Below the pieces are notes generated by a model. It worked only from the letters and a program-made list of their open reading frames with translations. It had not been told where the DNA came from and did no database searches. A stretch of DNA of 64,000 nucleotides from Strigamia acuminata (taxonomy: Eukaryota): the NCBI GenBank assembly GCA_949358305.1, contig OX442314.1, positions 6,572,001 to 6,636,000 of the forward strand, given 5' to 3'. Each line of letters begins with the position of its first letter. The first letter of the stretch is position 1. Position numbers and translations under genes: made by a program. Below are positions 11,815 through 51,425 of this stretch, in pieces.

Positions 11815-13332
11815 ATGGGAGGTAGTAAACACCGTTCAAAACGGAGTCATCGACGTCACCGTCATGAAAGTTCCAGCTCGTCCACCTCGTCTAGTGACGA
11901 GCAACGCCGTTCAGCGGAACGTGCTTACATGAGGGCCCAACCGATACCGACGGCGCCCGCCTCGATGTACGCCCTGACGCCGCTGCAACTCGCAACGCTA
12001 AATTGGCTGAGCGTCCATCCGGACGGACTTCCGCTCGATTTGAATTCGATGATGCAGGCCCCGTCCACATCTGCGCAGCCAACCGTTTATGAGTCGGCGC
12101 AGTTGGCCCCGTTGGCTCAGGTGGCATTTCCGCCCGCGAACGTTATCAACGTCCCGTTGGCCCCGCATTCACCAGAATTTCGGCCGCCAACTGCAAGCGT
12201 GGCGCCTACCGTCGCCAACACGTCGAATGCGACTGCACCGACTGTAGCGGGACAATCAACGTCTGATGTACGTCTCCCTGCTGGTGCTGAATCTTCGGCA
12301 TCAGAATACGGATGGAATGAGCCGCCGCCGGGCGCTTTACGTTTTTCGGAGCCTGTTTCTCGCAACCGCGAGTACCGAGCGGCTAATAAGGCAAGAAAGA
12401 AGGACGAGAAGGCCCGCTTGCGCAAAGAACAGTGCGAGCGTGACATGGCCGCAGGAATTCCGCACGATAACATCGTAACGGACCAGGCAACAGAGACAAT
12501 CTGCCCGTTCTGCGTCGGCTGCGGGTGGTGCTGCGGTGCATCCGCAGGGTCTTCTTTGATGCGTTGTCCAAACTGTCGTGGAAGGAAAACGCGACCGCGT
12601 TTGGAGCCGTGGAGGAAGGAGGTTCAGCCCCACGTAGTGAAAGGCATTAAGCCTAACGAGAAGCGATGTTGGGCTCACTGCCCAAAGTGCCGACTTTTCC
12701 TAAATAGTCGTGGCGAAGCGGTTTACATCGATCCACGTTTCCTCACCTGGACCCGCGCTGAAGCCAACGCCGGTGTAAGAGTCGAACTCCTTCGACAATC
12801 GCCACCGCCGTCCGAGGACTCTGAAGTTTCTACTGAAACTGTCCAGGCCACTGAAAGCGTCGGAAGCGAGGTGCAGGAAGAATTCGTTCGACCGAGAACG
12901 ATGTCGCGTGGTCGAGGCTGCCTCACGCTCGACCGAGCCAAGGAAATTGCCAAGGTTCAGCGAACCAACATCTTGGCACGAGGGCGAGCCCGTAAGCTTC
13001 GACAGGCTGTAGAAGCATCGTCTAAACCCGTGGAGAATCCTCCAGCGGCCGTAACCGACGTGTCCAGCGCCCCTCCAGCGTCTAAGTCCGAGACTTCGGA
13101 CGACGCTCAGTTTGAAGACGCCGAAGAGCTGCTTTCCGTCGTTGATTTCGTGGCTGAGTTGCTCGAGGATCTACCGTTCCCACCTCCGAGCCCAGAGGAA
13201 ATCGAAGCGCCGGAAGAAGCTGTGTTTTCCGCCGTCTCGACAGAGGCGACTGAAGAGTCTGATTTTCTGACTTCTGCTGAAGTCGAGAAGAAGGAAGAGA
13301 AAGATTCGACTGATGTCGAAAAGAAGGAATGA
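11815..13332 (+). CDS. E1 ORF3: 505-aa Cys-rich protein of unknown function (not env)
   Basis: GC-rich ORF within AT-rich flanks; ATG directly follows an acceptor-like ctgcag. Cys clusters CPFCVGCGWCC, CPNC and CWAHCPKC; basic N-terminus and acidic C-terminus; no signal peptide or transmembrane segment visible. Confidence 0.85.
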   Translation: MGGSKHRSKRSHRRHRHESSSSSTSSSDEQRRSAERAYMRAQPIPTAPASMYALTPLQLATLNWLSVHPDGLPLDLNSMMQAPSTSAQPTVYESAQLAPLAQVAFPPANVINVPLAPHSPEFRPPTASVAPTVANTSNATAPTVAGQSTSDVRLPAGAESSASEYGWNEPPPGALRFSEPVSRNREYRAANKARKKDEKARLRKEQCERDMAAGIPHDNIVTDQATETICPFCVGCGWCCGASAGSSLMRCPNCRGRKTRPRLEPWRKEVQPHVVKGIKPNEKRCWAHCPKCRLFLNSRGEAVYIDPRFLTWTRAEANAGVRVELLRQSPPPSEDSEVSTETVQATESVGSEVQEEFVRPRTMSRGRGCLTLDRAKEIAKVQRTNILARGRARKLRQAVEASSKPVENPPAAVTDVSSAPPASKSETSDDAQFEDAEELLSVVDFVAELLEDLPFPPPSPEEIEAPEEAVFSAVSTEATEESDFLTSAEVEKKEEKDSTDVEKKE

Positions 13333-18994: not shown

Positions 18995-21676
18995 CTACTC
19001 GGGTGTTTTAGGTGAAGGTAGGTCTATTGACATCATGTCCGTCTCGTCGGATAACGGATTTCCACTCTCGTTAACATTGATGAACGGTTGTCCCGTATTC
19101 GGCCCAGATGACAGGCCGGGGTTGACATGTATCCACACACTTCGGATGAGTCGGGATAAGGCGTCATCTCCAAACGCCATCTCGAAAAATTCTTGTGGGT
19201 CGGACGGGCGTCGGCGAGCTCGGATCAGCCGTTGATGCAACATCCACGGCCTCTTCTTTCGTATCTGCCGCTCAAGCCAGTTGAAAACGTGGTGGCAAAG
19301 CTCCACGTTGTGTTTGAGTAAAATCCTCGTATGCGGATGCATCTCGAGTCTTGGGTAAGTTTTTCGCAGCTTAATGTAGATTGGGCTGCTTTCCTGCTTC
19401 TTGGTTTCGGCAGCTCCGGCCGCCGATTGGATTGATTTCGGTGGATCGTCCTCTTTGGGCGATGGAGTGGGCGCTCGAATAGGCGAATGAACGCTCCTGG
19501 GTGGTGTCGGCGGGTTGGGCGCCGCGGCTGACTCGTCTGGACGTTTTACGTAACAAGATCGGCCCCCGGGCCGGAGGATCAAAGCTCCGCGTGGTTTCGG
19601 TCGAGTTTTGGGTCGCGCCCCCAAATCGGTGTTTTCGACGTGCGTAAAAAACGTGGTTGAACTTGAGGTCGTAGTTCGACCTCGACTCGGTCCAGGTCTT
19701 GGATCATCGAAATTTTCTACATCCATGGCGACGTGACTGTTGGACGGTTCAGTCGTGGTTTGGGCAACAGCTTGGCTCTCGATTGCGGCTGCAGTTGGCG
19801 TGTAAGTGGCTTCTGGCATCTTTCTTTTAGGCGTCTGATCCCTCGGCGGCATTCCTGCCGGTCGAATTGTTTTCAGTTCTTGCTGAAAAGTGATTTTGCG
19901 CATGTCCCACTCGCGTCGGAGACGAATGGCCGATGCGGCCGGGTTTTCTCCAATGACGGCAACTTGGCGCATCAATTCGCTGCACATGGTGGGCGGGTCC
20001 AATTGGATGGACCGCCAACAATCTAGAAACTCTGGTTTAACGGCCATGGCGGCCGTTCTTAGGCACGTGGTGGCAGCGAAGCCTGGTCTCGGACTGTCAA
20101 ATACCCCAAGAAACAAAATTCTCCGATAACTCGGCACAAGCTGTCGCTGTAACTCGTTCAAACGTGGGTCGTCGGGTCCCGTCGGTTCCATTCGGTTTAG
20201 CAAGCTGGCGACACGACGACTACCTTTCAGACTTTCGGTGACTTGGGCTATTTGGTATAAGTCCATGTCAGACAACTCAATCTCCTGAGTCTCTAACGGC
20301 GCTTCACAGAACCCCTGCCACATGGCGTCATAATGCTGATCGAATCCCTTTTTCAGAACTTGGGATACCATTCCGAATTTTCTCGTGGGCAATCGAGGCT
20401 CTGGAAGACTCGGGTCTGGGTTTATCGAATCCGTGTACTCTCTACACTCTACAGGAATCGGCCCATCGGTTGGCCGGTGACTCGCCTGGTCATTCGATTT
20501 TTGTGTGTTTGGAAGGCTCTTCCATTCACAGGCCGTGTTGTCGGCCATTGCGGGGGGTGAAATTCTATAGCTTCGGTCTACGATGTGGACTTCCGCGGAA
20601 CTTCCTCCCTCCAAGGCGGACACTGACGTTGGTGTATTTAACATCAAAGTCTCATTAGATCCTATCGTTGGTTCTTCTGCATCAGGCGATTGGAAACAGG
20701 CATCCCAATCGGCTTGCTGTTGCTCCAACGCTGCTTTCTTGCGAAGGGTGACTTGCATGGAATGCTCTTCGACTTCGCGATCCCATCGGCCAGGTAATTC
20801 GTCGTCCTTGGGCGGTGGTGGCATCAGGGCCAAGCGTTCGCGCTCTAACTTTTCACGGTTTTGTCGGCCTGCACGATGCTTGAGTCGGCCGTTGGCACGA
20901 AGCAAATCTGGTCTGGTTCCTGGGCGAGCGACGTATGGATCCACTCCTCCAGGGTATCGGCAAGCCGCGTCCCATCGTGAGACTCTGGCTTCCGAAACAT
21001 TATCAACGGCTCTTAAAGCCGTATTGTGGTGATTGCCACAGGTCATCTTGGCACGTGGTTCGTTTGATGCAACTGAACTCGACCGCTCTCGCTTATCATT
21101 GCGTTCTTGGTCGTGATATGCGTCTCTTTGACGTTCCCAGTCACGGAATCGGGCACGAGCGTAGCCGAAATGTCCGGCCATTCCCAGAATGTGCATCTCG
21201 TATTGTGAACTGGCGAGATCTGCCAAATCGTAATGTTTACGTCGATCGGCCCACCAGGCCTGCTCTTCTTGTAGCTTTCGCATAACTTCATCCTTCCGGG
21301 CCTTGAGTTTCTCCCAGATGGCATCCAAATAATCGTTCCTTTTGGCGTGTGGGATTCGGAAAAACCCGTAGAAGTCCGTGTCTTCCTCCTCCGTGGGAAA
21401 GAGCCAGCCAAAAAGCAATCTGGATCTCAACGGTGATGGTGGATCGATCCTTAGGTTCCAGGAAACGGGGTCGGCTACCATTAGCCGTCCACAAATTCGG
21501 CATCTACAGCCCCAATGTGTGGCGATGGCATTTGAGAACTCTTGTCTCACATCCTCCCACGTCTGACCAAGTTGTCGTAAACGTCGGACTTCGGCGGATA
21601 ATTCGCCTCTAAAAATTCCTGTTACCATGGGTACGTAATCTGGTAACGCGTACGGCTGATTGATTGCCATTAATAT
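18995..21676 (-). CDS. E2 ORF3 main exon (891-aa ORF; about 932 aa if spliced to 22104-22220), unknown function
   Basis: Long ORF starting right after the acceptor tttctgtag|ATA TTA ATG; shares N- and C-terminal motifs with E3 ORF3. Confidence 0.88.
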   Translation of the reverse strand: MLMAINQPYALPDYVPMVTGIFRGELSAEVRRLRQLGQTWEDVRQEFSNAIATHWGCRCRICGRLMVADPVSWNLRIDPPSPLRSRLLFGWLFPTEEEDTDFYGFFRIPHAKRNDYLDAIWEKLKARKDEVMRKLQEEQAWWADRRKHYDLADLASSQYEMHILGMAGHFGYARARFRDWERQRDAYHDQERNDKRERSSSVASNEPRAKMTCGNHHNTALRAVDNVSEARVSRWDAACRYPGGVDPYVARPGTRPDLLRANGRLKHRAGRQNREKLERERLALMPPPPKDDELPGRWDREVEEHSMQVTLRKKAALEQQQADWDACFQSPDAEEPTIGSNETLMLNTPTSVSALEGGSSAEVHIVDRSYRISPPAMADNTACEWKSLPNTQKSNDQASHRPTDGPIPVECREYTDSINPDPSLPEPRLPTRKFGMVSQVLKKGFDQHYDAMWQGFCEAPLETQEIELSDMDLYQIAQVTESLKGSRRVASLLNRMEPTGPDDPRLNELQRQLVPSYRRILFLGVFDSPRPGFAATTCLRTAAMAVKPEFLDCWRSIQLDPPTMCSELMRQVAVIGENPAASAIRLRREWDMRKITFQQELKTIRPAGMPPRDQTPKRKMPEATYTPTAAAIESQAVAQTTTEPSNSHVAMDVENFDDPRPGPSRGRTTTSSSTTFFTHVENTDLGARPKTRPKPRGALILRPGGRSCYVKRPDESAAAPNPPTPPRSVHSPIRAPTPSPKEDDPPKSIQSAAGAAETKKQESSPIYIKLRKTYPRLEMHPHTRILLKHNVELCHHVFNWLERQIRKKRPWMLHQRLIRARRRPSDPQEFFEMAFGDDALSRLIRSVWIHVNPGLSSGPNTGQPFINVNESGNPLSDETDMMSIDLPSPKTPE

Positions 21677-21950: not shown

Positions 21951-22220
21951 TTATTCGTTTAACATACTTTCAATACGATCTGACTCAGCTTTTATGAACT
22001 TTCGGTATTTTTCGAGCGTCCGTCGGGCTTGGTTATAAATTCGTTTGTCAGCCGATTTCAACATTTCAACGGCTTTTTTAAGTTTTTCAATGGCGATATT
22101 CACCTGATTTTGCAGATCGAAATCTTCGTCTAACATTTCGTCGGGCGGATTCATCACGAGATTTCTTTCGGGCTCCGAGTCCGAATCAATGTTGGGCGGT
22201 CCTTCGCCACCTTCGGCCAT
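21951..22220 (-). CDS. E2 small ORF (89 aa from MAEGG); its first 39 codons are the predicted first coding exon of ORF3
   Basis: Acceptor ttcacag 4 nt before the ATG. Internal CAG|GTGAAT donor at 22104/22103 is in phase 0 with the ORF3 acceptor at 21677. Confidence 0.65.
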   Translation of the reverse strand: MAEGGEGPPNIDSDSEPERNLVMNPPDEMLDEDFDLQNQVNIAIEKLKKAVEMLKSADKRIYNQARRTLEKYRKFIKAESDRIESMLNE

Positions 22221-22433
22221 GATTCTGTGAATGGGCCGTTTGTTTTTCATGACAAATCTAATCATTTCAAACTAACTGTTTCACTTACGAAGTTGAATCT
22301 ATTCTTTTCCTTCGTTAATCGGCGGATCGTCCCAATCAGTGTGTTGTCGGAATGGTTTCACTTTGGAAAGTAACAAATTTTTGCAAAGTCCCCCAACTTG
22401 ATGCTGATTGGTCGCCGTATGAACTACGTCATT

Positions 22434-34008: not shown

Positions 34009-34205
34009 AAAAAAAGTGCTGTTTAGGTCCATTTAAAAATTTTAAAATCATTCCAATTTAATCAATGACATCCTTGACTCTGTGTCAGGGAGCATTGTTG
34101 TTCTGATAAGTTACCTCTTCATCCCCAACGTGATCCTCGATTGTTGGCAGTAAAAAATAGTACAAAATATCTATATATATATAGCTGCATTGACTATCTC
34201 ATTTA

Positions 34206-34571: not shown

Positions 34572-34769
34572 CTCATTTGATGTGTTTTTTCACAATTTTT
34601 ATATAATTTTCCGCAATGTCCTATCCTGTCGTTTTGAAGTTTTCCTTGGTCTGCCATTTTTTGGGCGACACTTCCTGTCTCTTGATATTTTGTTCAAACG
34701 TTAAATACAGCAGATTGGGTAATACTGAACACAGTTCTGAGTTCTTCCTTCTTTTCATGCCTTGATAGT

Positions 34770-35560
34770 TTTGACATATCCCATGATCAATTCTCAAGAA
34801 ACAGACTCTTCGAACGGTTTGTGCAGTTTTGACATAACTGTCGGCATAACTTACAAATCGCAAGTATCAGGTCACTGAAAGTTTTGATAGTGTTACAAAA
34901 CCTCGTAAAAAACCCAATAAAACAAGTTTCATTCATATCCCATGGTCGGCTCTCGAGAAATAGACTCTTCGAACGGTTTGTGCAGTTTTGACATCACTGT
35001 CGGCTTAACTTACAAACTGCATGTGCTAGATGTTTGTAAGTTTCTATATAGTTACAAAACCATAGGAAAAACCCAATAAAACAGGTTTCTTACATATCCC
35101 ATGATCAATTCTCAAGAAACAGACTCTTCAAACAGTTTGTGTAATTTTGACATCAACTACGACGGACTTCAATACCACAACTGCTAGGTGTTTATAAGTT
35201 TCTATATACATGTAGTTACAAAACCACAGGAAAAATTTAATGAAACAAGTTTCATCCATATCTCATGGTCGATTCTCAAGAAACAGACTATTCGAACGGT
35301 ATGTGCAGTTTTGACATCAACATTAGCATGACTTACAAACCGCAAGCATCAGGTCACTGATAGTTTTGATAGTGTTACAAAACCTCGTAAAAAACCCAAT
35401 AAAATAAGTTTTATTCATATCCCATGATCGGTTCTCGAGAAACAGACTCTTTGAACAGTTTGTGTAGTTTTGACATCAACATTAGCATGATTTACAAACC
35501 GCAGGTGCTAGGTGTTTGAAAGTTTCTATATAGTTACAAAACCACGGAAAAAATTCCTGT
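34770..35560. repeat. ~160-bp tandem repeat (about 5 units) at the inner end of the right arm; about 2 inverted units at 33370-33675
   Basis: ttttgacatc...gagaaacagactctt...aacrgtttgtg recurs near 34829, 34987, 35147, 35310 and 35470. Confidence 0.85.
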
Positions 35561-38500: not shown

Positions 38501-39397
38501 ACATCCTTGTCTCCTTCACTTCACGAATTGTAAAATAGGACGCAAAGCGTGCAATAGATGGATTTCTTCCTCCTCCTATATAAGTTTCAAATTTTATGTG
38601 AAAAAGTGAAAGAATCAAAAGACATAACTTACTTCATTCATTCAAACATTGTAATAATTATTGGTAATCTTCATTTGAAATTGTGTTAAGTAAAGCTTTG
38701 ATTCACCAAACTAACTTACTTACTTCATTCAAACTTTGGAACCTTTATGCAAATGTCAAATTGTTGTCAAAATTATGAAACAAAATAAAAAAACGTGTTT
38801 TCAAGTGAGAAAAGTGGATTTTCAAGTGAGAAAAGTGTTTTTTCAAGTGAAAAAAGTGTGATTTTAAGTGAAATTCAAGTGAAAAATGTGTGATTTTAAG
38901 TGAAATTTAAGTGACGAATATGTGATTTTAAGTGAAATTCAAGTGAAAAAAATACATTCAAAAGAGGAAACAACTTACTTCCTTCATTCGAACTTTGTAA
39001 CCTTTATGTAAATGTCAAATTGCTGTATCAAAATTATGTAAACAAAATAATAAAAATGTGTTTTGTAAAATCAAAGTGTGATTTTAAGTGAAATTCAAGT
39101 GAAAAAAAATACATTCAAAAGAGGAAACAACTTACTTCCTTCATTTGAACTTTGTAACCTTTATGTAAATGTCAAATTGCTGTGTCAAAATTATGTAAAC
39201 AAAATAATAAAAAATGTGTTTTGTGAAATCAAATTACTCTTCAAAATACAGAAATGAAATAAAAACCTACAGATTTCCCTCTTAGATACACCCATCACAG
39301 TCCTATTTAAACCACTCATAGCTAAAGACACTCTCATCTCGTTGCAATAATGCACTGCTCTTGCACAATGCTGGTGCCATCTTCCGTCTCATTGTTG
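35314..39397. repeat. 2042-bp tandem duplication in the right arm (35314-37355 and 37356-39397)
   Basis: Identical ORF sets at offset 2042; junction ctcattgTTG|acatcaac with TTG microhomology. Confidence 0.93.
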
Positions 39398-39663
39398 GCA
39401 ATAGTAATGACAAAATCCATTGTTTTTTATTTAAAAACAATTTTAAAAAAAAGCAGAGAGAAAAAGCAGAGAAAAAAAGCAGAGAGAAAAAACTGTATTT
39501 ACCTGGAATTTTTTAAAATATTTTTATAATTTTATCTCAAATTTTTTAATTCATTAAAATAAAAAATTTCAGTCACTTCCCTTATTTTTTTTACCGGAAA
39601 AAAGATCAAATCACAGGTCAAAGAGACGGAAGAGAAGTGGAGGGAAAAAATAACAACACCACT

Positions 39664-40294
39664 TGTCGTGATTCGACTTTGTGGTTAAAGATAATAAATA
39701 ATACACTCGGGAATACAATATATTTCAAATACTGCTTTATTAAAACACGCTTACTAATACAAATATAAGTCAAGATGTTTCCTGTGTTGGTCCTCGGATT
39801 CGGCTGCGAATACGAGTTGCCGCTAAACAATGGCGGATCCAATTGTTTAGTCCTACGCGTGGTCTATGTTTGTTGTCTAGGGTATTTCCACGTGTTATTA
39901 TGAACACGCGAGAATTCGCTTTCTCGTGCGAATTAAACGAATATCGTTCGAATATTTATTCTAGCGTAGATTGGCTACGCTAAATAAATGTGGCTGTTGT
40001 ACAGTTGAAATGGTCAGCGGGCACCGGTCCTCGATCAATCCGTGAAACGGCCTGAAAGGTGAGGTAAATGGTGCTCTTGCTGAAATGTGGTAACTGTAGT
40101 GTCGTTTCCGGTCAAGCATTGGCTATATATATTAACCGGAAATGACGTCATATGCAAATCCTTCTGATTATGCAGGTTCGCAGAAACACGCGACTAGTCA
40201 GTCTAGTCGGTATTTCTAGCGCGCTCTAGTGGCGAGTATTAGTAACACAATAATCACCGCTAATTACTTCTTCAGGTGATGCTGAATCACCACA
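39664..40294 (-). repeat. E3 3' LTR
   Basis: Direct repeat of 50795-51425 (no differences noticed); PPT cggggagggacg adjacent on the minus strand (40295-40306). Confidence 0.97.
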
Positions 40295-40488
40295 CGTCCC
40301 TCCCCGAGAATAAATCATCGGGGCCCCCCCTTTAAATAAAGGTGGAGCAGTATCTTTAATCATAAATAATCTTTTTATTAAATAATGATGAATGATGAAC
40401 AAAATATTTTACATTCTTGAAATTGATACATAAATAATTTCAGGGTTTTTTAGAGAAGACAGTCTTCTCGTTATGAATATGTAATTAA

Positions 40489-43179
40489 TTATTTCTTCAA
40501 GTTATCGGCGTAACTTGGCTTATCTTCCGAACTTGGTTCGTCCAGGTTGGGAGATGTGGTCAATTTTGAAGAGTAGTCCGAGGGGTCTTCGCTCTCGTTC
40601 AAGTAGAAACGTAAGTGACCTGGTGCTTCCAGCGGATTCCCCGTTCGTTCGTGGGCCCAAATTGGCGGCAAAAAGGGCGACATTCCCTGATTGGTGTGAT
40701 GGATTCTTTGGGCCTCGGCAATGCTGGTTGGCGCGCGATGGGCTCGGAGTAGTCGTTGATGCTGGATGAAGCGATCGCCTCCGGCTCCAGCTTCGATAGC
40801 GTTCTTCATCCAGACATAAAGAGAATAGCCACGGTCTGGGGTTTGGAGTAATTTTGTTTCAGTATCCTTCGTCAAGGACAACCCCGGGAAGTACATCCGG
40901 AGTCTGGCGGCGATCTGAGGTTCGGCCGTCTTTGAAGCTTTCATGCTCGATTTTGGGCGGAGCAATTTTCCTTTTGTTTCCTTCTTTTTGAGCGAGACTG
41001 GTTCGGCCAGTGGTTCGGAAGGTCTATTTTCCTTCGGCGGAGGCGGAGGAGGAGGCGTCGGATCCCTGGGAGCCGGAGTTTCCACGACGGGTGTGGTCAC
41101 TGAAGACGACGGGCGTGGGTGTTGGATGATCGCTCGAACGTTCTGATAGGAGGTCTCTGGATCCGGGTCCTGGGCCACCATTTGGGCTCGAATTACTGCC
41201 GCAGAGGGCACTAGGCGGGTCCAGCTGTCTACGAGAGCCGGCGGGACTTGGAAACCCTCGTGGGCCACCACGATCCAGGCTGCCACAGCAACACGTGCGT
41301 TTCGGAAGGTGGCGGCGGCCAGCAAAATCGACATCAAGTCGGTAATGGCAACCACGATCCTCGTATTCCAATTTGGATGATCCCGATTTTTGTTCTGCGT
41401 ATATTCAATCGAGATCCGCTGAAGGTTCGTGATGACGTTTTGGATCACGTTTTGTTGGTAGGAGTCCATCTCGCACAAAAGCGCTCTAGCTTGCTCCACG
41501 GTCGTTACCTCCAGAAACTGTTGCAACGTTACCTCCGAAGGGTTGATTGGAGTCGAGGCTTGGATGACTGCTGGGGCTGGCAACATCGGATTGGGTCCCG
41601 TGGATGTCGTTGGCTGAGGCACAGATCTGACCAGACGTCTTGATTTTTCCGGTTCGGGCTTGTCCCAAACGATTGGAGTTCTCGTTGAAGTTGAGGCTTC
41701 GGGGATAGTTGGGAGAGGTTCGACTTTGGCCGGTCCAAAGCGAGCTTCTCGATGTCTGAGTTGTTCTTCAGAACTCAGTGTCGGTGCGCCGATTATCACT
41801 TTCTTGCGAAAGGCGCTTGGGAGGCTGACGCTGGATGTTACGCTTCTCGTCTGCGAGAGTTCCGGCTTGATGAAAGCACTTGGCGCCGTCTCTAGACTCG
41901 AGGCGGTCGAGGGAGTCGGGCGGTAGACTGGTTTCGGCTGCATTTGTTGGTATTGCATAACTACCGCGAGGAGGTCCGCCTGAGTATACATCTTCTTTTG
42001 CTCGGGGACCTCGTCGATAATTACCTCATCGTCGATCTTCATTGGTTCGGGACTGTCCCGAATTGATCGTGTATCTTCGCAGCGCCTCCTATCTCGCTGT
42101 CGAATTTCTTCTTCACGATACGCTTTCCATGAACGTGCGCGACTCTCCGATCCTCTCCTTCTTCGTTCGTCTTGTAGACGGAGGTTCTCTCGTTCACGTC
42201 GGGCTCTTTCATCACGTTCGCGCAGGAACTCCTCTCGGTGTCTATTCCAGGATTCCTTGTTTTCTTCCCGCCGTCGGAAGTAATTTCTACGATAATCGTC
42301 CCAATTTTCTTGGTTCCTATCGCGTCGGCGTTGATCTTCTCGGCGGTCGGGGCGTTCGCGTACATTTTCTCTTCTTCGGCTGGTTGACGGGGCATCCCTG
42401 GATTGAAATCGCGATGTTTGTGGGATCTCCGTCTTTCCCAGGCGAGAGAGAGCGCTTGGTTTGGCCAGGCGTTTCTCTGTCGCGGGTTTCTTATTCTGCG
42501 CGCTGCTGGAAGTGCTTGGCTTGTCCAGGCATGGTTTCTTCGCTGAGCAGCCTGCTTCGTCGTGCTCGTTGGAGAGACGTTTCTCGGCCTTCTGGCGTTT
42601 GCGACCAAAGAAGCCCAAAAAATGCAATTGATGCATTGCTCGTTGCGAGGTGATGAAACCGTGTCTCGGTCTCCAATCTGGGCGGTCGGGCCGGTCTTCG
42701 CGGATCTGAAGGAGCCAAAACCTGATTTCCTCGGTCGAGTAACCGTCCGGCTGTAGATAATTGAAAACCTCGTCATGTGCGGTCCGCCTTACTTCTTCGT
42801 AATATGCCATATGAATCTGGTGTTTTTCTTCATCTGTTTCGGCGTCGCGCCATTGTTCGTAAACGTCCCATCCTCGCTGGTCGTCAGGAAAGGCGGCTCG
42901 GATTAGTGGATTCGGGATTGGCGCTGGCGGGTCCATATTTCTCGAGATAACTGCCCGTAAAGCTGCTTGATATTGGCGCGGCATGTAGTGGATCAACGTT
43001 TGCTGGCTGGACCAGTAGCGGCTGATCGCACGGGACAATAAAAGGCGAATTTTCCATGGTTCAAAGTCGACCGCTTCTTCGAGCGCTTGTCGGAACAGTA
43101 TGGGGATTACTTCGCGCCATAAGCTGCCTGCGGAAACTCTTTTCGGGTCGATTTGCCCCCACGTAGTGCGATATCCGTC
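40489..43179 (-). CDS. E3 ORF3 main exon (896 codons; 946 aa with exon 1), unknown function
   Basis: The frame is open from the acceptor tatttag|GAC GGA TAT at 43180/43179, 47 codons upstream of the listed non-ATG start. Homologous motifs with E2 ORF3. Confidence 0.88.
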   Translation of the reverse strand, partial: DGYRTTWGQIDPKRVSAGSLWREVIPILFRQALEEAVDFEPWKIRLLLSRAISRYWSSQQTLIHYMPRQYQAALRAVISRNMDPPAPIPNPLIRAAFPDDQRGWDVYEQWRDAETDEEKHQIHMAYYEEVRRTAHDEVFNYLQPDGYSTEEIRFWLLQIREDRPDRPDWRPRHGFITSQRAMHQLHFLGFFGRKRQKAEKRLSNEHDEAGCSAKKPCLDKPSTSSSAQNKKPATEKRLAKPSALSRLGKTEIPQTSRFQSRDAPSTSRRRENVRERPDRREDQRRRDRNQENWDDYRRNYFRRREENKESWNRHREEFLRERDERARRERENLRLQDERRRRGSESRARSWKAYREEEIRQRDRRRCEDTRSIRDSPEPMKIDDEVIIDEVPEQKKMYTQADLLAVVMQYQQMQPKPVYRPTPSTASSLETAPSAFIKPELSQTRSVTSSVSLPSAFRKKVIIGAPTLSSEEQLRHREARFGPAKVEPLPTIPEASTSTRTPIVWDKPEPEKSRRLVRSVPQPTTSTGPNPMLPAPAVIQASTPINPSEVTLQQFLEVTTVEQARALLCEMDSYQQNVIQNVITNLQRISIEYTQNKNRDHPNWNTRIVVAITDLMSILLAAATFRNARVAVAAWIVVAHEGFQVPPALVDSWTRLVPSAAVIRAQMVAQDPDPETSYQNVRAIIQHPRPSSSVTTPVVETPAPRDPTPPPPPPPKENRPSEPLAEPVSLKKKETKGKLLRPKSSMKASKTAEPQIAARLRMYFPGLSLTKDTETKLLQTPDRGYSLYVWMKNAIEAGAGGDRFIQHQRLLRAHRAPTSIAEAQRIHHTNQGMSPFLPPIWAHERTGNPLEAPGHLRFYLNESEDPSDYSSKLTTSPNLDEPSSEDKPSYADNLKK

Positions 43180-43448
43180 CTAAATATTAGAATATTAATA
43201 AATATATTAGGATCGTTGATTAATTTGTCATATTTTTGTAGAGATTCTTTCGTCTAACACAAGATGGCGTCATGGTCGGCCATGTGCTTTTCGACCACGT
43301 GTCTTGAAGTTAATTTTTCTTTCGGTATTTGATTAATTTTGATAATTTGTCACTTAAAGTTAAATTATTTCTTCGTTTGTGGTCAGTCCACGAACTTATT
43401 TCGTATTTTTGATTATCGATAATTGAATTTTTTCTATTTTTTACTTAC

Positions 43449-43598
43449 GTCGGGTTGGACATCGGGTTCATTGGGTTCGTCCCAATTTCCCTCTTCGTTG
43501 TTTACAATGATTTGTAACAAATCCACTTGATCTTCATCGTCATCCTCGGAAGCGTTGTTTACGGCCCGTTCAATTTCTTTCTTCCAATCATTTCTCAT
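43449..43598 (-). CDS. E3 ORF3 exon 1 (50 codons, acidic: MRNDWKKEIERAVNNASEDDDEDQVDLLQIIVNNEEGNWDEPNEPDVQPD)
   Basis: ATG at 43598, exactly 150 nt to a GAC|GTAAGT donor, phase 0 matching the acceptor at 43180. Confidence 0.8.
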
Positions 43599-43776
43599 TT
43601 TTCGGAAACTAATTTGATTTCACGGCTGTCTCGAGGTGATCGTTGCTTAGTCGGAGATGACAGTGATAAGTGTGGGTCGGGTTAGAGGTTAACTATTAGT
43701 CTCATGTCATCTTTGATTGGTTTGGCCAATTAAGACGCATTGTGGGACGTAACAGGTGTCCCCCCTGTGGTTGTTT

Positions 43777-46700
43777 TTATCGATTGTTTGAGACAATGGC
43801 CGGAGTCGCTTTTTGTTTTCCGACGAGTTTCCCGTCTTTTATGAACGGGTTTGGCTTGTGTCGGCGCATACCGTATATTTTATCAGGTTTGGGGATTCCT
43901 GTAGTCTTCTTTTTGTTTGATTGCTTTCCTTTTTTAGGAGATTCTGCGACTATTTCCTCCCTCCCCGAAATCTCATCCGGGGCGTCGGCCACTTCGAGTA
44001 ACTCATCTTGAACTAAATTGGTTGGGCCAGTTTGTTCATCTAAAAACATGTCGCGAATAATTGGATTTTTCGCTGGTTTCGTCTGATATTCCGTCCAAGC
44101 CTCTTGAGGAAACTCAGGTAAGTATGGAGTTAATTCTCGGGCGTGGATCGATCTAAAATTAACGTTATCTGCCAATCTTTTTAGCTTGAAAGCGTTTCCG
44201 CCGTGGGCTTCGAGTATGACGTACGGGCCGTCGCGTTTGTCTGCTAAGCCTGCGTGGATCCCCTTATCGGCGCTGGACTGAATATGTGTGTCTTTCCAGA
44301 CGAGGTCATTGACTTTAAAATTGCAGAAGGGCCGATCCTTTCCAGCAATGCTAATACGATCTCTCATGTCGAATATGTGTGACATCATGTGCTGATAAGT
44401 GGCCGAAATTATTTGCTCCAGTCTGTCGACATAAATATGAGGCTTCTCAGGATCAATTTCCAGTATTTCCTCCGGTATTCGTGGGTCCCAGGGTACTCTG
44501 AGTTCCCGAGCGAAGTTTAGAAACGCGGGAGAAAATTTGCGGTTCCTTGAGATCGTTGTGCGGATGCTGAAGGCAATTTCACGAAGATATTCGTCCCAGC
44601 TGGAGTGAACATCGGTGAAAATTGCTAGTGCATATTTTATATCGCGATTTAACCTTTCGACGGGATTGGCCCGTGGATTATAGGTTGATGTATATGATGT
44701 CTCGATGTCGAATTTTTTACAGAAGTCTTTATACAAATTTGACGCGAATTGTGGTCCATTATCGGAGATTAATTTTCGAGGGAATCCAAAATGAAGCGCC
44801 ACTTCGTACAAACATCGAATGATTTTTTGCTTAGTTGGTCTCTCCATTGGAAAGAGTTCGGGCCATCCAGTCGCGACATCCATGATTACTAATATATATT
44901 TGTTTTTATTGGATGACGTGGGTTTTGGGCCCATTAAATCCACGCTCCAGCAATCGAAGGGTGCGAAAGGGCCAAGTGAGATTCTCTCGTAGTTCTTGGG
45001 CGTCCTCGGCTTGCACGCTTGGCATCTGGGGCAGTGATGAATAAAACGAACAATATCTCGGGTCATTTTTGGCCAGAAATAAAGTTGATTTGCTCGGTAG
45101 ATCGTTCTGGCCACTCCAGAATGTCCGGCGAGCGGGTGTCCGTGGACCATCCACAGAAACCTTGTCAGCAGACTCCTGGGTATAACGACTTTCATCGAAG
45201 TTCCTGTCTCCGTCAGATCATCGCGGAAATTCGGGTGGTGTTTTAGTAGAAGTCCATCCTCGATTAAGTACGTGGAGGCTTCTCTTTCGAATTCTTCACG
45301 TTGGATTTCGTCGAAATTCTCGTCGGGAAATATTTTATCTGTGATGAAGTCTCGATAAGTTTTACAGAAGTCGTCTGCCATCTGGGCGGCTATTAATTCG
45401 TCCCTGGTGGGCGGTTTGCTATTCGTCCCCTTGCTTACGTGGGCGACGAATGCTCGAACGTACTTGTCGGAGATTCGAGGTTCTATTGTTAGCTCATAAT
45501 TTGGGTGAGCGTCCTTGACCGACTGGTACGCTCGGAGCCAATAACTGTAATAATTCTGGTCTCCTGACTCGAGTTTCTCCTTGGGTAATTCGTTTAGCTT
45601 TTTAAATTCCCATTTTTGGACGGGGTTCGGACAGTAGAAGAGGCGTGAGTCGTCCTCTCCGCAGTCGGTCTCGTCTTCGGGGTCTGAAGCTGGGGCTCGT
45701 GAGAGGGCGTCTGCCACGACGTTGAATTTTCCGGGTCGGTATTCAATGATTAAGTCACAAGCCATTAATTCTAGCTGCCAGCGAGCCATTCTTCCGGACG
45801 GTTCCTTCAACGCCATTAACCACTTTAGTGCTTCGTGGTCAGTTTGTACGTTGAACTTGGTAAATTCCAGGTATGGTCTGAATTTTCGGATTGCCCAGAC
45901 GACGGCTAGACATTCTAACTCTGTCGCATTATAATTCTTTTCGGCTGCTTGTAATTTCCGGCTGATGAACATCGTCGGGACCTCTAACACTACTCCGTCG
46001 ATGTCATGCTTTTGAAGCAACGCAGCACCTAGGCCAATTCGACTGGCGTCGGTGTGAAGAGTGAATTCTCGATTAAGATCTGGTAGGGGAATTCGTTTTA
46101 CATCGATCAGCATTTGTTTTATTTTGTTAAACGATGTTTCGCAGTGGTCAGTCCACTCGAAATCTTTATCGTTGCGTAACAGATCTGTGATGGGCGCCGC
46201 GACGTCTGCCAAATTTGGGAGCAATCGATTGAAGAAATTCACCATGCCCATGAAACGTTGGACTCCTTTTACATCTTCCGGGGCGGGGAACTGGCTAATC
46301 GCCTGGGTCTTTTTCGGGTCGATGGATAGGCCACCTGTTCCGACTGTGTAACCCAGGAATGCCAATTCTTTGCGGCAAAATTTACTTTTCCCTGGATGAA
46401 TGTTTAGACCGGCTTTTGTGAGTCGCTCCATGACGTCATTCACGTGTATCAGGTGATCTTCAAAAGTTTGGGAGACTATGACTATATCATCGAGGTAAGC
46501 CCATGCGTATTTGTGTAAGGCATCGCCGAGAACTTTTTCTATTAGTTTTTGAAAGGTGGCGGGTGCGTTTACTAACCCGAAGGGCATTACATTAAACATC
46601 AGTCGACCCTGTGGTGCCCAAAAAGCTGTTTTCTCTTTATCCTCTTCCCGCAATTCAACCTGCCAGTAACCCTTGGACAAGTCCATGGTCGTGACCCAGT

Positions 46701-47889
46701 TAAATGGGGCGAGCTCCCGTAGAATCGCTTCTATTGACGGCATTTGGATGGGGTCGATGACGGTTATGGCGTTTAAAGGTCTATAATCGATGCAGAGGCG
46801 CGGTTCGGAGCCTGGTCGCATGACGAGGACAATCCTCATTCCATATTCTCCGATGGCGTGCGACACGATCCCTTTTTCGAGCAACTCGTTGCACATCGTT
46901 CTTACGATATGTCTCTTTTGGGGATTCATAGTTTTAAAAGGTACTCGCACCGGTTTTCCCGTAACCAATTCGATCTCGTGCATTACGTAACTAGTCTTTC
47001 CTGGATCTTTATTTAAGTTCTTCGAGTGCTTCTTGAGCATTTCCTCGAGGAGTTTCGTTTGTTCTTCTCCAAGATTGGCGTCCATGGCCAGATTATGTAT
47101 TAAATTCTCCTCTTGGAGGATAGTATTAAACGACTTAAAATTATAGTCTTGGATGAACTTCTTAATTTCGCCTCCTCCCCATTCCTCGTCGTCCTTAGCT
47201 TTGTCTAGGAGTTCCGGAGGTATTATGGGTAGTCGTGGGTCCTCGTGGTTGTCGATGTAATTCCACGAACGTGTGACTGGGTTGGGCTGGATGTTCATCC
47301 GTTCCATCAAATCCATTCCTATCAGCAGGATTGTGTCTCGGGTTGGTAACACGATGAAGAAATGCTTAATCGTGCCTCCTTCCCATACAAAATCGGTTGA
47401 TAACGTCCCCACTGCTCTAACTTCTCCCGCTGCTGTAAGAACTCGAATATTCTCGTTCATTCCCCGTAATTTTTTCTGTATTTTTTCTTCGAGTGATTCG
47501 AATAAGTCGGTGGAGATAAACGACTGATCCGCTCCCGAGTCGAGTAGTCCCATTAACACCTTTTTGCCGAAAGAGACTGGTATTTTAGCCAGTACGCTCT
47601 TCGCTTCTGTTGATAGGTTGCAACGAAGTATTCGCTTTTTAAGAGGATTGGCCCCTTGGTCAAGCGGCAAAGTCATGAAAGCGTTGGCTATACCGTCTTC
47701 GTCTCTAATTTCGAATTTCCGTTTTTTGGTTGGAGTTGTGACTTCCTCGTTGGCAGCTTCCTCGAAGAATTCCAACAATTTTTTCATTTCTTTAATTTGT
47801 TTTTCCACCAGTGTAAGGTCCATCGTTTTCGAAGTTATCGCGAGCGGATGTGGAATCACTTTTGTTCCGCCCGCGAGTTCCAGTTTTTT
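43777..47889 (-). CDS. pol: E3 Pol (PR-RT-RH-IN), -1 frameshift
   Basis: LLDSGA, YLDD, TDAS, HGHPLAGH...CPRC, DLMGP/SDNG/VER and GPY motifs. Confidence 0.97.
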   Translation of the reverse strand, partial: KKLELAGGTKVIPHPLAITSKTMDLTLVEKQIKEMKKLLEFFEEAANEEVTTPTKKRKFEIRDEDGIANAFMTLPLDQGANPLKKRILRCNLSTEAKSVLAKIPVSFGKKVLMGLLDSGADQSFISTDLFESLEEKIQKKLRGMNENIRVLTAAGEVRAVGTLSTDFVWEGGTIKHFFIVLPTRDTILLIGMDLMERMNIQPNPVTRSWNYIDNHEDPRLPIIPPELLDKAKDDEEWGGGEIKKFIQDYNFKSFNTILQEENLIHNLAMDANLGEEQTKLLEEMLKKHSKNLNKDPGKTSYVMHEIELVTGKPVRVPFKTMNPQKRHIVRTMCNELLEKGIVSHAIGEYGMRIVLVMRPGSEPRLCIDYRPLNAITVIDPIQMPSIEAILRELAPFNWVTTMDLSKGYWQVELREEDKEKTAFWAPQGRLMFNVMPFGLVNAPATFQKLIEKVLGDALHKYAWAYLDDIVIVSQTFEDHLIHVNDVMERLTKAGLNIHPGKSKFCRKELAFLGYTVGTGGLSIDPKKTQAISQFPAPEDVKGVQRFMGMVNFFNRLLPNLADVAAPITDLLRNDKDFEWTDHCETSFNKIKQMLIDVKRIPLPDLNREFTLHTDASRIGLGAALLQKHDIDGVVLEVPTMFISRKLQAAEKNYNATELECLAVVWAIRKFRPYLEFTKFNVQTDHEALKWLMALKEPSGRMARWQLELMACDLIIEYRPGKFNVVADALSRAPASDPEDETDCGEDDSRLFYCPNPVQKWEFKKLNELPKEKLESGDQNYYSYWLRAYQSVKDAHPNYELTIEPRISDKYVRAFVAHVSKGTNSKPPTRDELIAAQMADDFCKTYRDFITDKIFPDENFDEIQREEFEREASTYLIEDGLLLKHHPNFRDDLTETGTSMKVVIPRSLLTRFLWMVHGHPLAGHSGVARTIYRANQLYFWPKMTRDIVRFIHHCPRCQACKPRTPKNYERISLGPFAPFDCWSVDLMGPKPTSSNKNKYILVIMDVATGWPELFPMERPTKQKIIRCLYEVALHFGFPRKLISDNGPQFASNLYKDFCKKFDIETSYTSTYNPRANPVERLNRDIKYALAIFTDVHSSWDEYLREIAFSIRTTISRNRKFSPAFLNFARELRVPWDPRIPEEILEIDPEKPHIYVDRLEQIISATYQHMMSHIFDMRDRISIAGKDRPFCNFKVNDLVWKDTHIQSSADKGIHAGLADKRDGPYVILEAHGGNAFKLKRLADNVNFRSIHARELTPYLPEFPQEAWTEYQTKPAKNPIIRDMFLDEQTGPTNLVQDELLEVADAPDEISGREEIVAESPKKGKQSNKKKTTGIPKPDKIYGMRRHKPNPFIKDGKLVGKQKATPAIVSNNR

Positions 47890-50702
47890 GTCATACTGTC
47901 GAATTTGGCGGTGAGTTCCTTCAAGATTTTTTCTTGTTCCTTCGCGAGCAATTTCACTAGCTCCTCACGCTCTGCGGCCTTGTCGTCGGCTTTTTTCTTT
48001 GCCAGTTTTGGGCAGGCCTGACGCCAGTGGCCGTCTTCGTTACAGAAATTACAAGGGCTTTTCTTCTTTCCCTCCCGCTCAAAAGGTTTTTTGGGGTAGT
48101 CCTTCTTCTCGGAAGTCGCCTCTGTTTTCGGGTTGTGGTGTTCCGATTTTCTGGACTTCATCTGAGGTCGGTAGCTGGGCGCCAGTTCCTTCCCCATGTT
48201 TGCGTGTACCACATCGTTGATACCTTCGTCAGCCTCATCGCTTTCCGAGAATTGCTCAGAGTCTTCGCTTACTTCGTCTTCCGACTTTTCCTCGGCGGCG
48301 TTAGTTTGCGTGCGATAGGCCTTATTCGGAGGTGGTAAAGGGTTAGAAGCTTGTTGGTTTTTCTTTGAGGGGAGTGGCTCTATACTTCCGTTTAGATAAT
48401 TTCGCGATTGGAGCAGCTTAGTGGAGTCTATGCTGCGCTCCTGTATTCGTTGCTGTCGGGCCACTCCTAGAGCTCGCTCTTCTTTTGTCAGATTTTCGTT
48501 ATACCGAGCATTTACTTCGGTGTGTTTCTTCTCGACGAAAGCTAGGATGGCTTTGAAATTATCCCCTTTAGGAGCGTTCATTTCTCGTAGGACTTTGGTT
48601 GCGGTTTCGTTTAGTCCTTGTTCGAAGAGAGCTTTCTGAGCGTGTTGGTCAAATGGTTTGTCCATTTCACGGAACAGGCTGTCGGCTCGTTGTACGTATT
48701 CCCTCAGAGTTTCCCCGGGAGCTTGCTTCATAGAGCTTACTCTTTTCTGGATTTCTTGGCTCGTCTCGCCATATTGATTGTGGAACTTTATGACGAAATC
48801 TTCCCAGTTTCGGGGTTGGACATCAGCGTACCAGTTTCGGGCCCGGTTGATCAGCATTTCTGGTATTCCGCGTGCAACCATTTCGTCGGGTTCCGCTCCT
48901 AAGCGATTAATCGTCAGGGCGACTTCGTCCAAAAACAAGTTGCCGGCGTTCCAGGATCCGTCGAACTTAATTAGTCTCAGGGTCGTCCACTTGATGTTGT
49001 TATCCTTGCGAGAATACAGCCATCGGTCTGCGGAGTAACGTTTCAACAATCCTTCGCTTCGATCGTCCTCCTCGGTCTCTTGGCCACGGCTTTGTTGAAG
49101 TTTTTGGTCCATGGCCTGAAGGAGTTCGTCTTTCATCGTCCGTAGTTGGTTGCTTAGCGAGTCAGTCTCACTAAGCAGCGGTGATGATCGTGGATTGTCG
49201 GAAGGGAGGCTTGGGTAATGCGTACCGTTGCCCGTCAGTCCGAACTGATTGTGTTGGAACGACGTTTTCCCTGATGATCCCGCGGTGTTCGGGTTATTCG
49301 TGAGGTCTTGCGCTATGGTTGAGTTATCTGGGTTCGCTTTCTCTGGAGCGGAGGTTTGGCTCAACTTTGTTCCGGGCGGTATCAGATCGTCCAGTCGGGT
49401 CCCCGTGAGGCCTTCGTTCGTTTTTTTGATAAAAACGTAGGAATCTCTCCCAGCATACGCTTCGGCGGCGTGTTTCTTTTCGAGGTGATTTTTAACTGCG
49501 TTAATCTCCTCGAGCGTCGGCATGGCCAGTTTATTTTGACCTACTTCGTTGCGTATTTGATTCTTCTGATTTATACATCTGATTAGCTCTGCGTTAGGGT
49601 CGCCTGGGTTGTTATTACTGGTTTGGCCAGTTTTCATTGCGAATGAGTTTTTTACTGCCCATGATTGTGCGCCCTGATTATTCCTCCTATCCTGTATAAA
49701 CGCCTCGTACAGTTCTCCTTTGACTTCGTCCGATTCGTTCAAGATGCTATCTAGTCCGTTGACTCGGATACTGCCGTGAGATGCTTGAGAGTCGATACTT
49801 TCGCTGTCTGACGTTGCTTCGCCGCCTGTCTCGGACTGTTGTCGATCTGCTCCGACCCGACGTCGTTTCTCTCCGCGTCTGGCCGTGTTATCTGCCGATC
49901 GTTTTTCAGTCCTCTGATTTACTAGGTCGATTACTCGGCTTAGCTCTGCGTAGGGATCCTTGTCCTGGTCGATCTCGATGCCGTGTGCGCAAGCTACCCG
50001 AGTTACTTCTATTGCTTTGGCTACCAGCTCCTTAGCTGTGTGAGACCGTTCTGGGGAGCTCTGTACGGAGTTTGGCTCCGAATGCTGGCTTAACCCGTTG
50101 CTTGGCGGCCGGATCTGGCAGTCCTTTGCCATTTCTCGTTCGATTATTTTCTGCTTCGCGAGCAATTCTCGAGCCAGCTCGCGCTCCAGTGCCATTTGTT
50201 TAGCTTGGTGTTCTTGTGCCAAGCTCTGTTCCATGGCAGCTAATTTCTCGCGATGCTCTCTGGCTAAATCTTCCATCAATTCGTTTTTCTTCTTCTCTAA
50301 CGCGACTGTTCTTGCTTGGTCTGCGCGGGCAGCCTCGTTGATAATTGCGGCACTTGTGTTTGCCGCTTTATTTAGAAGAGTCATTAGATCCATTTCACTG
50401 GGATCCTTTTCGACTGGTCTTGGGCTTTTCAATCCGAATCGAGGGTTTTCGAACGATTTATTTAGTCCGTTTTCTTCGTGAGAGCTTCCTGATCCTTCGA
50501 ATTCGCCTCCCGTAAACGGAAGTTGTCTTGCAAGGGGAAGGCTTTCACTTGATGATTCCGTTGAAACTTTAGTCGAGTTAGTCTCGACTTCTGGTTCCAC
50601 GTGGTTCGCTTCTTCCGCTTTTTGGCGTTCGATTTCTTCGGCTTCTTTTCTATCCTTTTCGTCGTTACGCCTTTTTCTATCTTCTGCGGTAGTTTTTGTC
50701 AT
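47856..50702 (-). CDS. gag: E3 Gag (948 aa)
   Basis: CCHC knuckle CNFCNEDGHWRQAC; RARNWY...W capsid-like region homologous to E2 Gag. Confidence 0.95.
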   Translation of the reverse strand: MTKTTAEDRKRRNDEKDRKEAEEIERQKAEEANHVEPEVETNSTKVSTESSSESLPLARQLPFTGGEFEGSGSSHEENGLNKSFENPRFGLKSPRPVEKDPSEMDLMTLLNKAANTSAAIINEAARADQARTVALEKKKNELMEDLAREHREKLAAMEQSLAQEHQAKQMALERELARELLAKQKIIEREMAKDCQIRPPSNGLSQHSEPNSVQSSPERSHTAKELVAKAIEVTRVACAHGIEIDQDKDPYAELSRVIDLVNQRTEKRSADNTARRGEKRRRVGADRQQSETGGEATSDSESIDSQASHGSIRVNGLDSILNESDEVKGELYEAFIQDRRNNQGAQSWAVKNSFAMKTGQTSNNNPGDPNAELIRCINQKNQIRNEVGQNKLAMPTLEEINAVKNHLEKKHAAEAYAGRDSYVFIKKTNEGLTGTRLDDLIPPGTKLSQTSAPEKANPDNSTIAQDLTNNPNTAGSSGKTSFQHNQFGLTGNGTHYPSLPSDNPRSSPLLSETDSLSNQLRTMKDELLQAMDQKLQQSRGQETEEDDRSEGLLKRYSADRWLYSRKDNNIKWTTLRLIKFDGSWNAGNLFLDEVALTINRLGAEPDEMVARGIPEMLINRARNWYADVQPRNWEDFVIKFHNQYGETSQEIQKRVSSMKQAPGETLREYVQRADSLFREMDKPFDQHAQKALFEQGLNETATKVLREMNAPKGDNFKAILAFVEKKHTEVNARYNENLTKEERALGVARQQRIQERSIDSTKLLQSRNYLNGSIEPLPSKKNQQASNPLPPPNKAYRTQTNAAEEKSEDEVSEDSEQFSESDEADEGINDVVHANMGKELAPSYRPQMKSRKSEHHNPKTEATSEKKDYPKKPFEREGKKKSPCNFCNEDGHWRQACPKLAKKKADDKAAEREELVKLLAKEQEKILKELTAKFDSMTKNWNSRAEQK

Positions 50703-50774
50703 TTCTTACGATATAATGATCGATCGAAAGATCCCGGTTATTATTTAAAGTATTGTCTTAAGGTTAGCAAATCT

Positions 50775-50792
50775 ATCCCGGACAGACCCCCA
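50775..50792 (-). promoter_or_regulatory. E3 primer-binding site, tRNA-Pro-like
   Basis: TGGGGGTCTGTCCGGGAT, 3 differences from the canonical tRNA-Pro PBS, two of them G:U compatible. Confidence 0.82.
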
Positions 50793-50794: not shown

Positions 50795-51425
50795 TGTCGT
50801 GATTCGACTTTGTGGTTAAAGATAATAAATAATACACTCGGGAATACAATATATTTCAAATACTGCTTTATTAAAACACGCTTACTAATACAAATATAAG
50901 TCAAGATGTTTCCTGTGTTGGTCCTCGGATTCGGCTGCGAATACGAGTTGCCGCTAAACAATGGCGGATCCAATTGTTTAGTCCTACGCGTGGTCTATGT
51001 TTGTTGTCTAGGGTATTTCCACGTGTTATTATGAACACGCGAGAATTCGCTTTCTCGTGCGAATTAAACGAATATCGTTCGAATATTTATTCTAGCGTAG
51101 ATTGGCTACGCTAAATAAATGTGGCTGTTGTACAGTTGAAATGGTCAGCGGGCACCGGTCCTCGATCAATCCGTGAAACGGCCTGAAAGGTGAGGTAAAT
51201 GGTGCTCTTGCTGAAATGTGGTAACTGTAGTGTCGTTTCCGGTCAAGCATTGGCTATATATATTAACCGGAAATGACGTCATATGCAAATCCTTCTGATT
51301 ATGCAGGTTCGCAGAAACACGCGACTAGTCAGTCTAGTCGGTATTTCTAGCGCGCTCTAGTGGCGAGTATTAGTAACACAATAATCACCGCTAATTACTT
51401 CTTCAGGTGATGCTGAATCACCACA
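50795..51425 (-). repeat. E3 5' LTR
   Basis: Direct repeat of 39664-40294. Confidence 0.97.

Follow-up and report, generated by a model that had tools for sequence, protein, structure and literature searches.

A probably spliced, non-envelope third gene after pol in a Ty3/Gypsy element of Strigamia acuminata

Few non-envelope accessory proteins of animal long terminal repeat (LTR) retrotransposons have been characterised so far. The closest described case is CERV of the C. elegans Gypsy-type element Cer1, a 517-aa nuclear product of a spliced mRNA, built of three domains on linkers and needed for export of the genomic RNA (PMC10309623). Additional sense open reading frames (ORFs) between pol and the 3′ LTR form a known class, aORF-3S (PMC7264820), the non-Env ORF3s of bdelloid elements are varied and typically produced from separate spliced messages (PMC5408684), and in the Oikopleura elements Tor3b and Tor4b env is transcribed from an internal promoter (PMC4402516). 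Here we describe the third ORF (ORF3) of E3, a Ty3/Gypsy LTR element at 39664-51425 on the reverse strand of a 64,000-nt stretch of Strigamia acuminata DNA (GCA_949358305.1, contig OX442314.1, positions 6,572,001 to 6,636,000; hereafter the window), and compare it with the three other LTR elements of the window, E1, E2 and E4. Judged from the sequence, it is a real, selected and probably spliced orphan gene in an apparently exchangeable slot within an unusual lineage of Gypsy elements.

E3 ORF3 lies on the gag-pol strand, in the interval between pol and the 3′ LTR, and is conserved across copies; it resembles aORF-3S and the bdelloid ORF3s in position, orientation and family-specific, exchangeable content, whereas the known members described in those sources are Env-like, transmembrane, coiled-coil, GDSL or DEDDy proteins and E3 ORF3 is larger and has no such Pfam match (PMC7264820, PMC5408684). 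With the Tor elements it would share a third gene driven from pol or the post-pol spacer, although the Tor product is a transmembrane glycoprotein (PMC4402516). As an extra gene of an invertebrate Ty3/Gypsy element it can also be set beside the F- and gB-type Env of errantiviruses (10.1101/2023.10.26.564294) and sORF2 of the MDG1 group (10.1101/2025.03.14.642691), but it has neither the signal peptide of the former nor its conserved C-terminal transmembrane helix or its glycosylated, Cys-rich ectodomain and, at 946 aa with no conserved transmembrane segment, is unlike the latter, a short, single-pass, FAST-like fusogen. With CERV it shares a large non-Env accessory product, a presumed spliced mRNA, three presumed domains joined by linkers, basic clusters, a lack of detected homologues beyond the lineage and usable splice sites kept in the genomic RNA (PMC10309623). 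CERV, however, is described as having exons shared with gag, a Cys loop and a G-protein-like domain (PMC10309623), whereas E3 ORF3 follows pol and has no Cys loop of the CERV M-domain type; the Cys cluster of E1 ORF3 is more CERV-like. Neither CERV, with its H, M and G domains, nor Rev was among the matches of our general ORF3 protein searches, which included no direct comparison with the CERV sequence. An earlier, sequence-only reading of this DNA had called internal coding introns rare in such elements, which proved too strong, since non-Env third genes that are spliced or separately promoted are known in animal Gypsy elements (PMC10309623, PMC5408684); with CERV, the bdelloid ORF3s and Tor as precedents, the intron is less exotic than claimed.

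The gene model of E3 ORF3 and a motif upstream of it are as follows:
43714..43722, reverse strand: CCAAT-box-like motif in the spacer between pol and ORF3, individually weak (P ~0.09); a motif of this kind also occurs in E2
43449..43598, reverse strand: predicted exon 1, with ATG at 43598, 150 nt or 50 codons, 17 acidic residues and no signal peptide
43180..43448, reverse strand: predicted phase-0 intron, 269 nt, GTAAGT...TTTAG, 28% GC
40489..43179, reverse strand: exon 2, 896 codons plus stop, with the first Met at codon 66

The coordinates, the phase-0 frame and the motif pairs quoted in the sequence-only reading were all recovered, and the spliced product would have 946 aa (50+896, by arithmetic from exons translated separately). 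The candidate intron carries stops in all three frames. In E3 as in E2, the TAG of the acceptor doubles as the in-frame stop codon after which the ORF begins. On the sense strand of the 10.5-kb internal region of E3, GTAAGT occurs once, at the intron donor; the lone internal sense GTAAGT of E2 also falls between pol and ORF3, and so does one of the two in E1; E4 has none after pol (the chance of a GTAAGT in a single spacer is 0.18, 0.11 and 0.37 for E2, E3 and E1, respectively). Among the variants listed for other copies, exon 1 changes in length by +3 and -6 nt and keeps its frame, adjoining indels are of +2, +2 and +5 nt, and one substitution falls in exon 1 (150 nt) vs seven in the intron (269 nt). 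Codons 1-65 of exon 2, ahead of Met66, are open, with 4/6 variants synonymous (p 0.054). Taken together, these signals make it likely that the 269-nt intron of E3 ORF3 is spliced. The intron was removed in none of the six DNA joints listed among copies, which says little because contigs drop rare forms.

A strong acceptor directly upstream of exon 1 was looked for and not found, and CCAAT-like motifs, which we take to fit the NF-Y consensus, stand in the spacers of both E2 and E3; for these reasons an internal promoter seems likelier than an LTR-derived splice as the source of the ORF3 mRNA, with a donor-like GTAAG at 50709, just ahead of E3 gag, as a counterpoint. An AATAAA at 40378 (reverse strand), 110 nt past the ORF3 stop and before the 3′ LTR, is absent in E2 and may be a chance match in AT-rich DNA.

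Selection was assessed on variants in contigs that come from a single study's two DNA-like runs and in which many variant copies span all 30 bins of E3, including ORF3. The count covers 40 of 41 rows for exon 1 to the 5′ region of exon 2, and 40 of 462 for the rest of the element (35 used, five in LTRs dropped). In the 5′ part of exon 2 (43179-42750), 22 of the 27 listed variants were synonymous, vs 27% expected when transitions were weighted fourfold; among the variants listed elsewhere the counts were 10/13 in the rest of exon 2 and, counted likewise, 12/21 in pol. This excess of synonymous variants shows that E3 ORF3 is a real gene, under purifying selection that is at least as strong a signal as in pol. 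The sequence-only reading's third gene kept in two divergent families is supported, the pol proteins of E2 and E3 being 52% identical.

Comparison with E2 rests on these features:
42589..43065, reverse strand: N-terminal block common to E2 ORF3 (exon-2 aa 39-197), modelled as helical with low confidence
41170..41478, reverse strand: middle block, weakly common to E2 (aa 568-670), helical, containing a hydrophobic stretch
40582..40956, reverse strand: C-terminal block, the best conserved with E2 (aa 742-866), with HQRL.RA.R.P, W.H and NES motifs
18995..21676, reverse strand: main exon of E2 ORF3, 893 codons, starting exactly at the TTTCTGTAG acceptor-like site, with Met as codon 3
22104..22265, reverse strand: acidic candidate exon 1 of E2, with 39 or 54 codons and a phase-0 CAG|GTGAAT donor

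BLASTP of E3 against E2 ORF3 gave three colinear blocks (E 8e-4, 0.04 and 2e-6), and the full-length local score of 122 compares with 58.6±7.2 for shuffles keeping local composition (z 8.8; reached by 0/300). Tested separately, with limits set after the BLAST result had been seen, the C-terminal block reached z 12-13 (0/1000 shuffles), the N-terminal block z 5-6 (0-1/1000) and the middle block z 3.3-3.6 (7-9/1000). By this alignment the two ORF3s are distantly homologous, with a similarity of ~38 bits; the proposed homology exceeds chance, and the terminal blocks already described hold, a third, middle block having been overlooked. Since the homology was kept while pol fell to 52% identity, ORF3 appears to be an old resident of E2 and E3. 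In E2 an alternative, non-coding donor (GTAAGT) lies at 22288. If unspliced, the E2 spacer (21951-22265, reverse strand) would hold a small acidic, coiled-coil-like ORF of 89-104 aa with sub-threshold ERp29 and syntaxin helical matches.

Read from its N-terminus, E3 ORF3 starts with an acidic region, followed by the helical N-terminal block, basic clusters and a 95-aa Arg/Glu helix; a Ser/Thr/Pro linker leads on to the helical middle block, and a Pro-rich one to the conserved C-terminal block. The helix is predicted as follows (pLDDT, predicted local distance difference test):
42061..42345, reverse strand: long single helix rich in Arg and Glu (aa 279-373; 33 Arg and 25 Asp/Glu of 95; pLDDT ~80)

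Eight basic clusters were counted in E3 ORF3 and six in E2 ORF3; E3 exon 2 contains four scattered Cys and one NxS/T site. Inspection by eye and a Kyte-Doolittle scan gave no signal peptide at either possible E3 start, both being charged or non-hydrophobic. The hydrophobic stretch at exon-2 aa 606-626 has a Kyte-Doolittle 19-mer mean of 1.84; because E2 ORF3 peaks at 0.87, there is no conserved transmembrane helix. The judgement that the protein is not an Env and has no signal peptide therefore stands, although this one stretch, not shared by E2, had been missed. AlphaFold2 models built from two-sequence alignments reached pLDDT 40.1 for the full length and 44.6 for the C-terminal block, and fold searches with these low-confidence models returned no match (best Z 3.8 among 48,161 chains; best E 0.004 at TM 0.06). 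A histone-fold likeness of the C-terminal block, suspected by eye, was dropped after PDB sequence and fold searches gave it no support.

Sequence searches were equally blank. Exon 2 found no homologue among 5.8 billion proteins, of which 7,991 were scored as candidates; a phmmer search of 1.84 billion representatives gave 0 hits at E<=0.001, and a profile of the C-terminal block against longer proteins gave 0 at E<=1 (2,254 candidates). Neither Pfam (for E2, no more than sub-threshold matches) nor PHROGs gave an ORF3 match, PDB sequences yielded no relative (best E 1.8 and 4.1), and viral contigs yielded no homologue. A six-frame scan of the window and 13 other loci revealed no further ORF3 homologue, and none of 120 pol homologues carried a fused ORF3-like tail. 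The protein collections, Pfam, PHROGs, PDB and the fold searches thus agree with the initial impression of an unrecognised family, and no description of the E3 ORF3 protein was found in the open literature, a search that did not cover the repeat databases Repbase, Dfam and GyDB. Empty searches of this kind exclude close relatives only, and they say little about distant kin because E2 and E3 themselves share just ~38 bits and the models are poor. As far as searched, the E2/E3 ORF3s would make up a new protein family, in an add-on of a kind already familiar from Gypsy elements.

The interval that holds ORF3 has signals in common among the elements of the window (PPT, polypurine tract):
43758..43765, reverse strand: PPT-like motif GGGGGGAC, 12 nt past the E3 pol stop
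11815..13332, forward strand: E1 ORF3, 505 aa with a Cys-rich middle, its ATG right after a CTGCAG acceptor-like site, with a GTAAGT at 11210

PPT-like GGGGGA(C) occurs at 10835, 22394, 43765 and 62839, as an internal copy in E1-E3 and as the true PPT in E4; GGGGGAC follows the pol stop by 77 nt in E1, 40 nt in E2 and 12 nt in E3, and in E4 the true PPT follows the pol stop by 62 nt. E3 ORF3 lies between the post-pol motif and the true PPT. On the internal sense strand of E3 the post-pol G5A run is the sole one, vs two and three others within gag-pol of E1 and E2. The pattern was noticed post hoc and gives no direction of gain or loss. E1 ORF3 has no detectable similarity to the E2 and E3 proteins (42/300 and 78/300 shuffles reach the scores); it begins with a basic His/Arg/Ser region and has several CxxC pairs, with zinc-ribbon Pfam matches below threshold. 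A candidate 31-nt mini-exon starts in E1 at 11179, and a TATA-like motif lies near 11696. E4 has no ORF3. The GC content of E3 ORF3 is 0.54 vs 0.46 for pol.

Because E1 holds an unrelated ORF3 and E4 none, with signals common to all three carriers, the pol-to-PPT interval looks like a swappable cassette: the slot appears common to the lineage, the gene in it not. A "lineage-wide" third gene, as the sequence-only reading had it, is therefore not supported. Plus-strand synthesis of a longer genome could be primed a second time at the post-pol PPT-like motif, or the motif could be a scar of gain or loss.

We favour, at a probability of about one in three, the reading that E3 ORF3 is a non-Env, likely spliced gene whose product would be a CERV/Rev-like nuclear helper acting on the element's own transcript. 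Its short first exon would be transcribed from a promoter in the 180-nt post-pol spacer, or else an additional splice from the LTR would lead to it; splicing of the ORF3 mRNA would remove the 269-nt intron; the 946-aa product, with three folded blocks on flexible linkers, would enter the nucleus; and there, more speculatively, it may bind or protect the unspliced genomic RNA and aid its exit. A role in genomic RNA is proposed because full-length RNA must retain the intron for daughter copies to keep it. They do keep it, and therefore either the genomic RNA escapes splicing or intron-less copies are lost. The basic clusters, the 33 Arg in the 95-aa helix and the lack of a signal peptide are counted for a nuclear or RNA role; a nuclear, RNA-binding or anti-silencing function is a guess from composition.

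Several observations weigh against this reading. CERV shares exons with gag and needs its Cys loop, whereas E3 ORF3 follows pol and has no such Cys cluster, and the Arg/Glu helix, the best RNA-binding candidate, has no clear match in E2. The candidate exon 1 of E2 shows no similarity to that of E3 (997/2000 shuffles reach the score), similarity to E2 upstream of Met66 is weak when taken alone (143/2000 match it), and the junction and start site are predictions from DNA signals. In E1 and E2 an ATG directly follows the acceptor-like site, and the E3 intron contains DRE-, E-box- and YY1-like motifs (P 0.016, 0.086 and 0.034, uncorrected), as judged by what we take to be their consensus sequences. 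The binomial p-values for the synonymous excess (7e-9 and 4e-4) overstate independence and are too small, because variants are linked within subfamilies. Finally, one pol clade includes E1 with a different ORF3 and E4 without any, so the lineage does not strictly need the E2/E3 protein (E4 may be helped in trans).

A 946-aa protein under purifying selection in two families at 52% pol identity must serve a need of the element, and if that need is export or protection of unspliced RNA, or counter-silencing, the protein would be a new solution to a central retroelement problem. The window is a natural comparison set for gain, swap and loss, with E2 and E3 holding the same ORF3 family, E1 another and E4 none. 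In a more far-reaching version, which we regard as doubtful, these elements would represent a deep and so far unsampled arthropod-like Gypsy lineage with a dedicated exchangeable slot (second PPT, own promoter and intron), in which E2 and E3 carry a new family of large nuclear proteins that have three new folds and overcome the host's control of the element, either RNA retention or small-RNA silencing. Such proteins would be an independently evolved counterpart, in animals, of Rev/CERV or an anti-silencing factor.

It is possible, if unlikely, that the ORF3 protein instead works on chromatin or transcription. It would then act on the LTR or the internal promoter as a transactivator or an anti-silencing factor, the acidic exon 1 serving as activation region and a helical block binding DNA. 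The acidic residues of exon 1 (17/50), the basic clusters and the mostly helical blocks would suit this, and there are parallels in the Grande accessory gene, cited as encoding a nuclear protein from its own promoter, and in the extra ORFs of Retand, which are predicted to bind DNA (both in PMC11963269); but no DNA-binding fold was recognised, the C-terminal model being poor and its best fold match being the Z of 3.8 given above, and Pfam yields no chromatin domain. We consider it rather unlikely that the protein is orphan or captured cargo aimed at the host cell (for instance its germline fate, small-RNA machinery or stress). Exchangeable content within one pol clade and the higher GC of ORF3 than of pol point that way, as does the capture of varied non-Env ORF3s by bdelloid elements (PMC5408684), whereas no collection searched contained a donor gene, and a gene homologous in E2 and E3 despite their pol divergence is an old resident.

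The 269-nt stretch might also be mainly an internal promoter or leader, with unspliced translation from Met66 in E3 (831 aa) and Met3 in E2. The DRE-, E-box- and YY1-like motifs inside it, the ATG right behind the acceptor-like site in E2 and E1 and the TATA-like motif there in E1 are what such an arrangement would show, but the open run of 65 codons ahead of Met66, in which most variants are synonymous and which partly aligns to E2, the frame-keeping length changes of exon 1 and the lone GTAAGT make it improbable; spliced and unspliced modes could coexist. A membrane protein that resembles Env or sORF2 and serves spread between cells, suggested by the location between pol and the 3′ LTR, the splice signals including the GTAAG ahead of gag and the one hydrophobic stretch, is very improbable given no signal peptide, only four Cys and one NxS/T site, a hydrophobic stretch not kept in E2, no Env match in Pfam and a size far beyond that of the short transmembrane sORF2 (10.1101/2025.03.14.642691).

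In all four LTR elements of the window gag carries a CCHC knuckle and pol follows the protease, reverse transcriptase, RNase H, integrase (PR-RT-RH-IN) order, and the remaining features of E3 and its neighbours are:
~1478-15833, forward strand: E1, LTR element
~17562-30732, reverse strand: E2, LTR element
53528 to window end, forward strand: E4, LTR element
50795..51425, reverse strand: 5′ LTR of E3, TG...CA, 631 bp, with a single mismatch across the 637 nt aligned to the 3′ LTR
50775..50792, reverse strand: E3 primer-binding site, 2 nt past the LTR, near-identical in E2; presumably resembling the 3′ end of tRNA-Pro
47856..50705, reverse strand: E3 gag, 949 codons between stops, with a Retrotrans_gag match (E 5e-10) and a CCHC knuckle that stays below the cut-off
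43777..47964, reverse strand: E3 pol, with PR-RT-RH-IN of Ty3/Gypsy type, free of stops and in a different frame from the gag that it overlaps
40295..40306, reverse strand: true PPT of E3, ahead of the 3′ LTR
39664..40294, reverse strand: 3′ LTR of E3

E3 thus has the Ty3/Gypsy arrangement of gag upstream of PR-RT-RH-IN, TG...CA LTRs, primer-binding site, PPT and target-site duplication, the last of 4 bp (39660-39663 and 51426-51429) and present as a single copy in the empty site of the other arm of a foldback. Near-identical LTRs, target duplication and this empty site show that E3 is an intact, recent insertion. An empty-site joint among copy contigs was rejected as a polymorphism, as it may derive from the foldback's other arm. 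Apart from the E2/E3 pair, pol identity is 60% between E1 and E4 and 34-37% between the pairs. E1-E4 cluster with one further sequence (SH-aLRT 92) in a quick tree of 45 RT-RH sequences, drawn from 114 rows and containing no named reference clades, so that no Micropia/Mdg3 placement was made. The nearest pol relatives reach at most 37% identity over the region searched, the best named being from centipede, ticks and moths, and those in metagenomes at most 35%.

E3 landed inside the right terminal repeat of the foldback-like element (30962-39663 and 51416-51731), which has 2-kb inverted arms and tandem arrays of 21, 30 and ~159 bp. The target duplication of E1 (1474-1477/15834-15837) is the same 4 bp as that of E3, with E2's differing at one position, which possibly reflects a target preference; the LTR ends of E1 and E3 are similar despite 35% pol identity. 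Both E2 LTRs hold a 219-codon open frame (17789-18448 and 29781-30440, reverse strand). In E4 (53528-64000, forward strand) the LTRs are identical across the 1,156 nt compared and pol is broken into two frames near 62150-62220; it is a recent copy that, because its pol is split, may be mobilised in trans. E4 interrupts a host amiloride-sensitive channel (ASC/DEG-ENaC) fragment at 52659-53522 (reverse strand), in which one ASC domain seems to end and a second one to begin.

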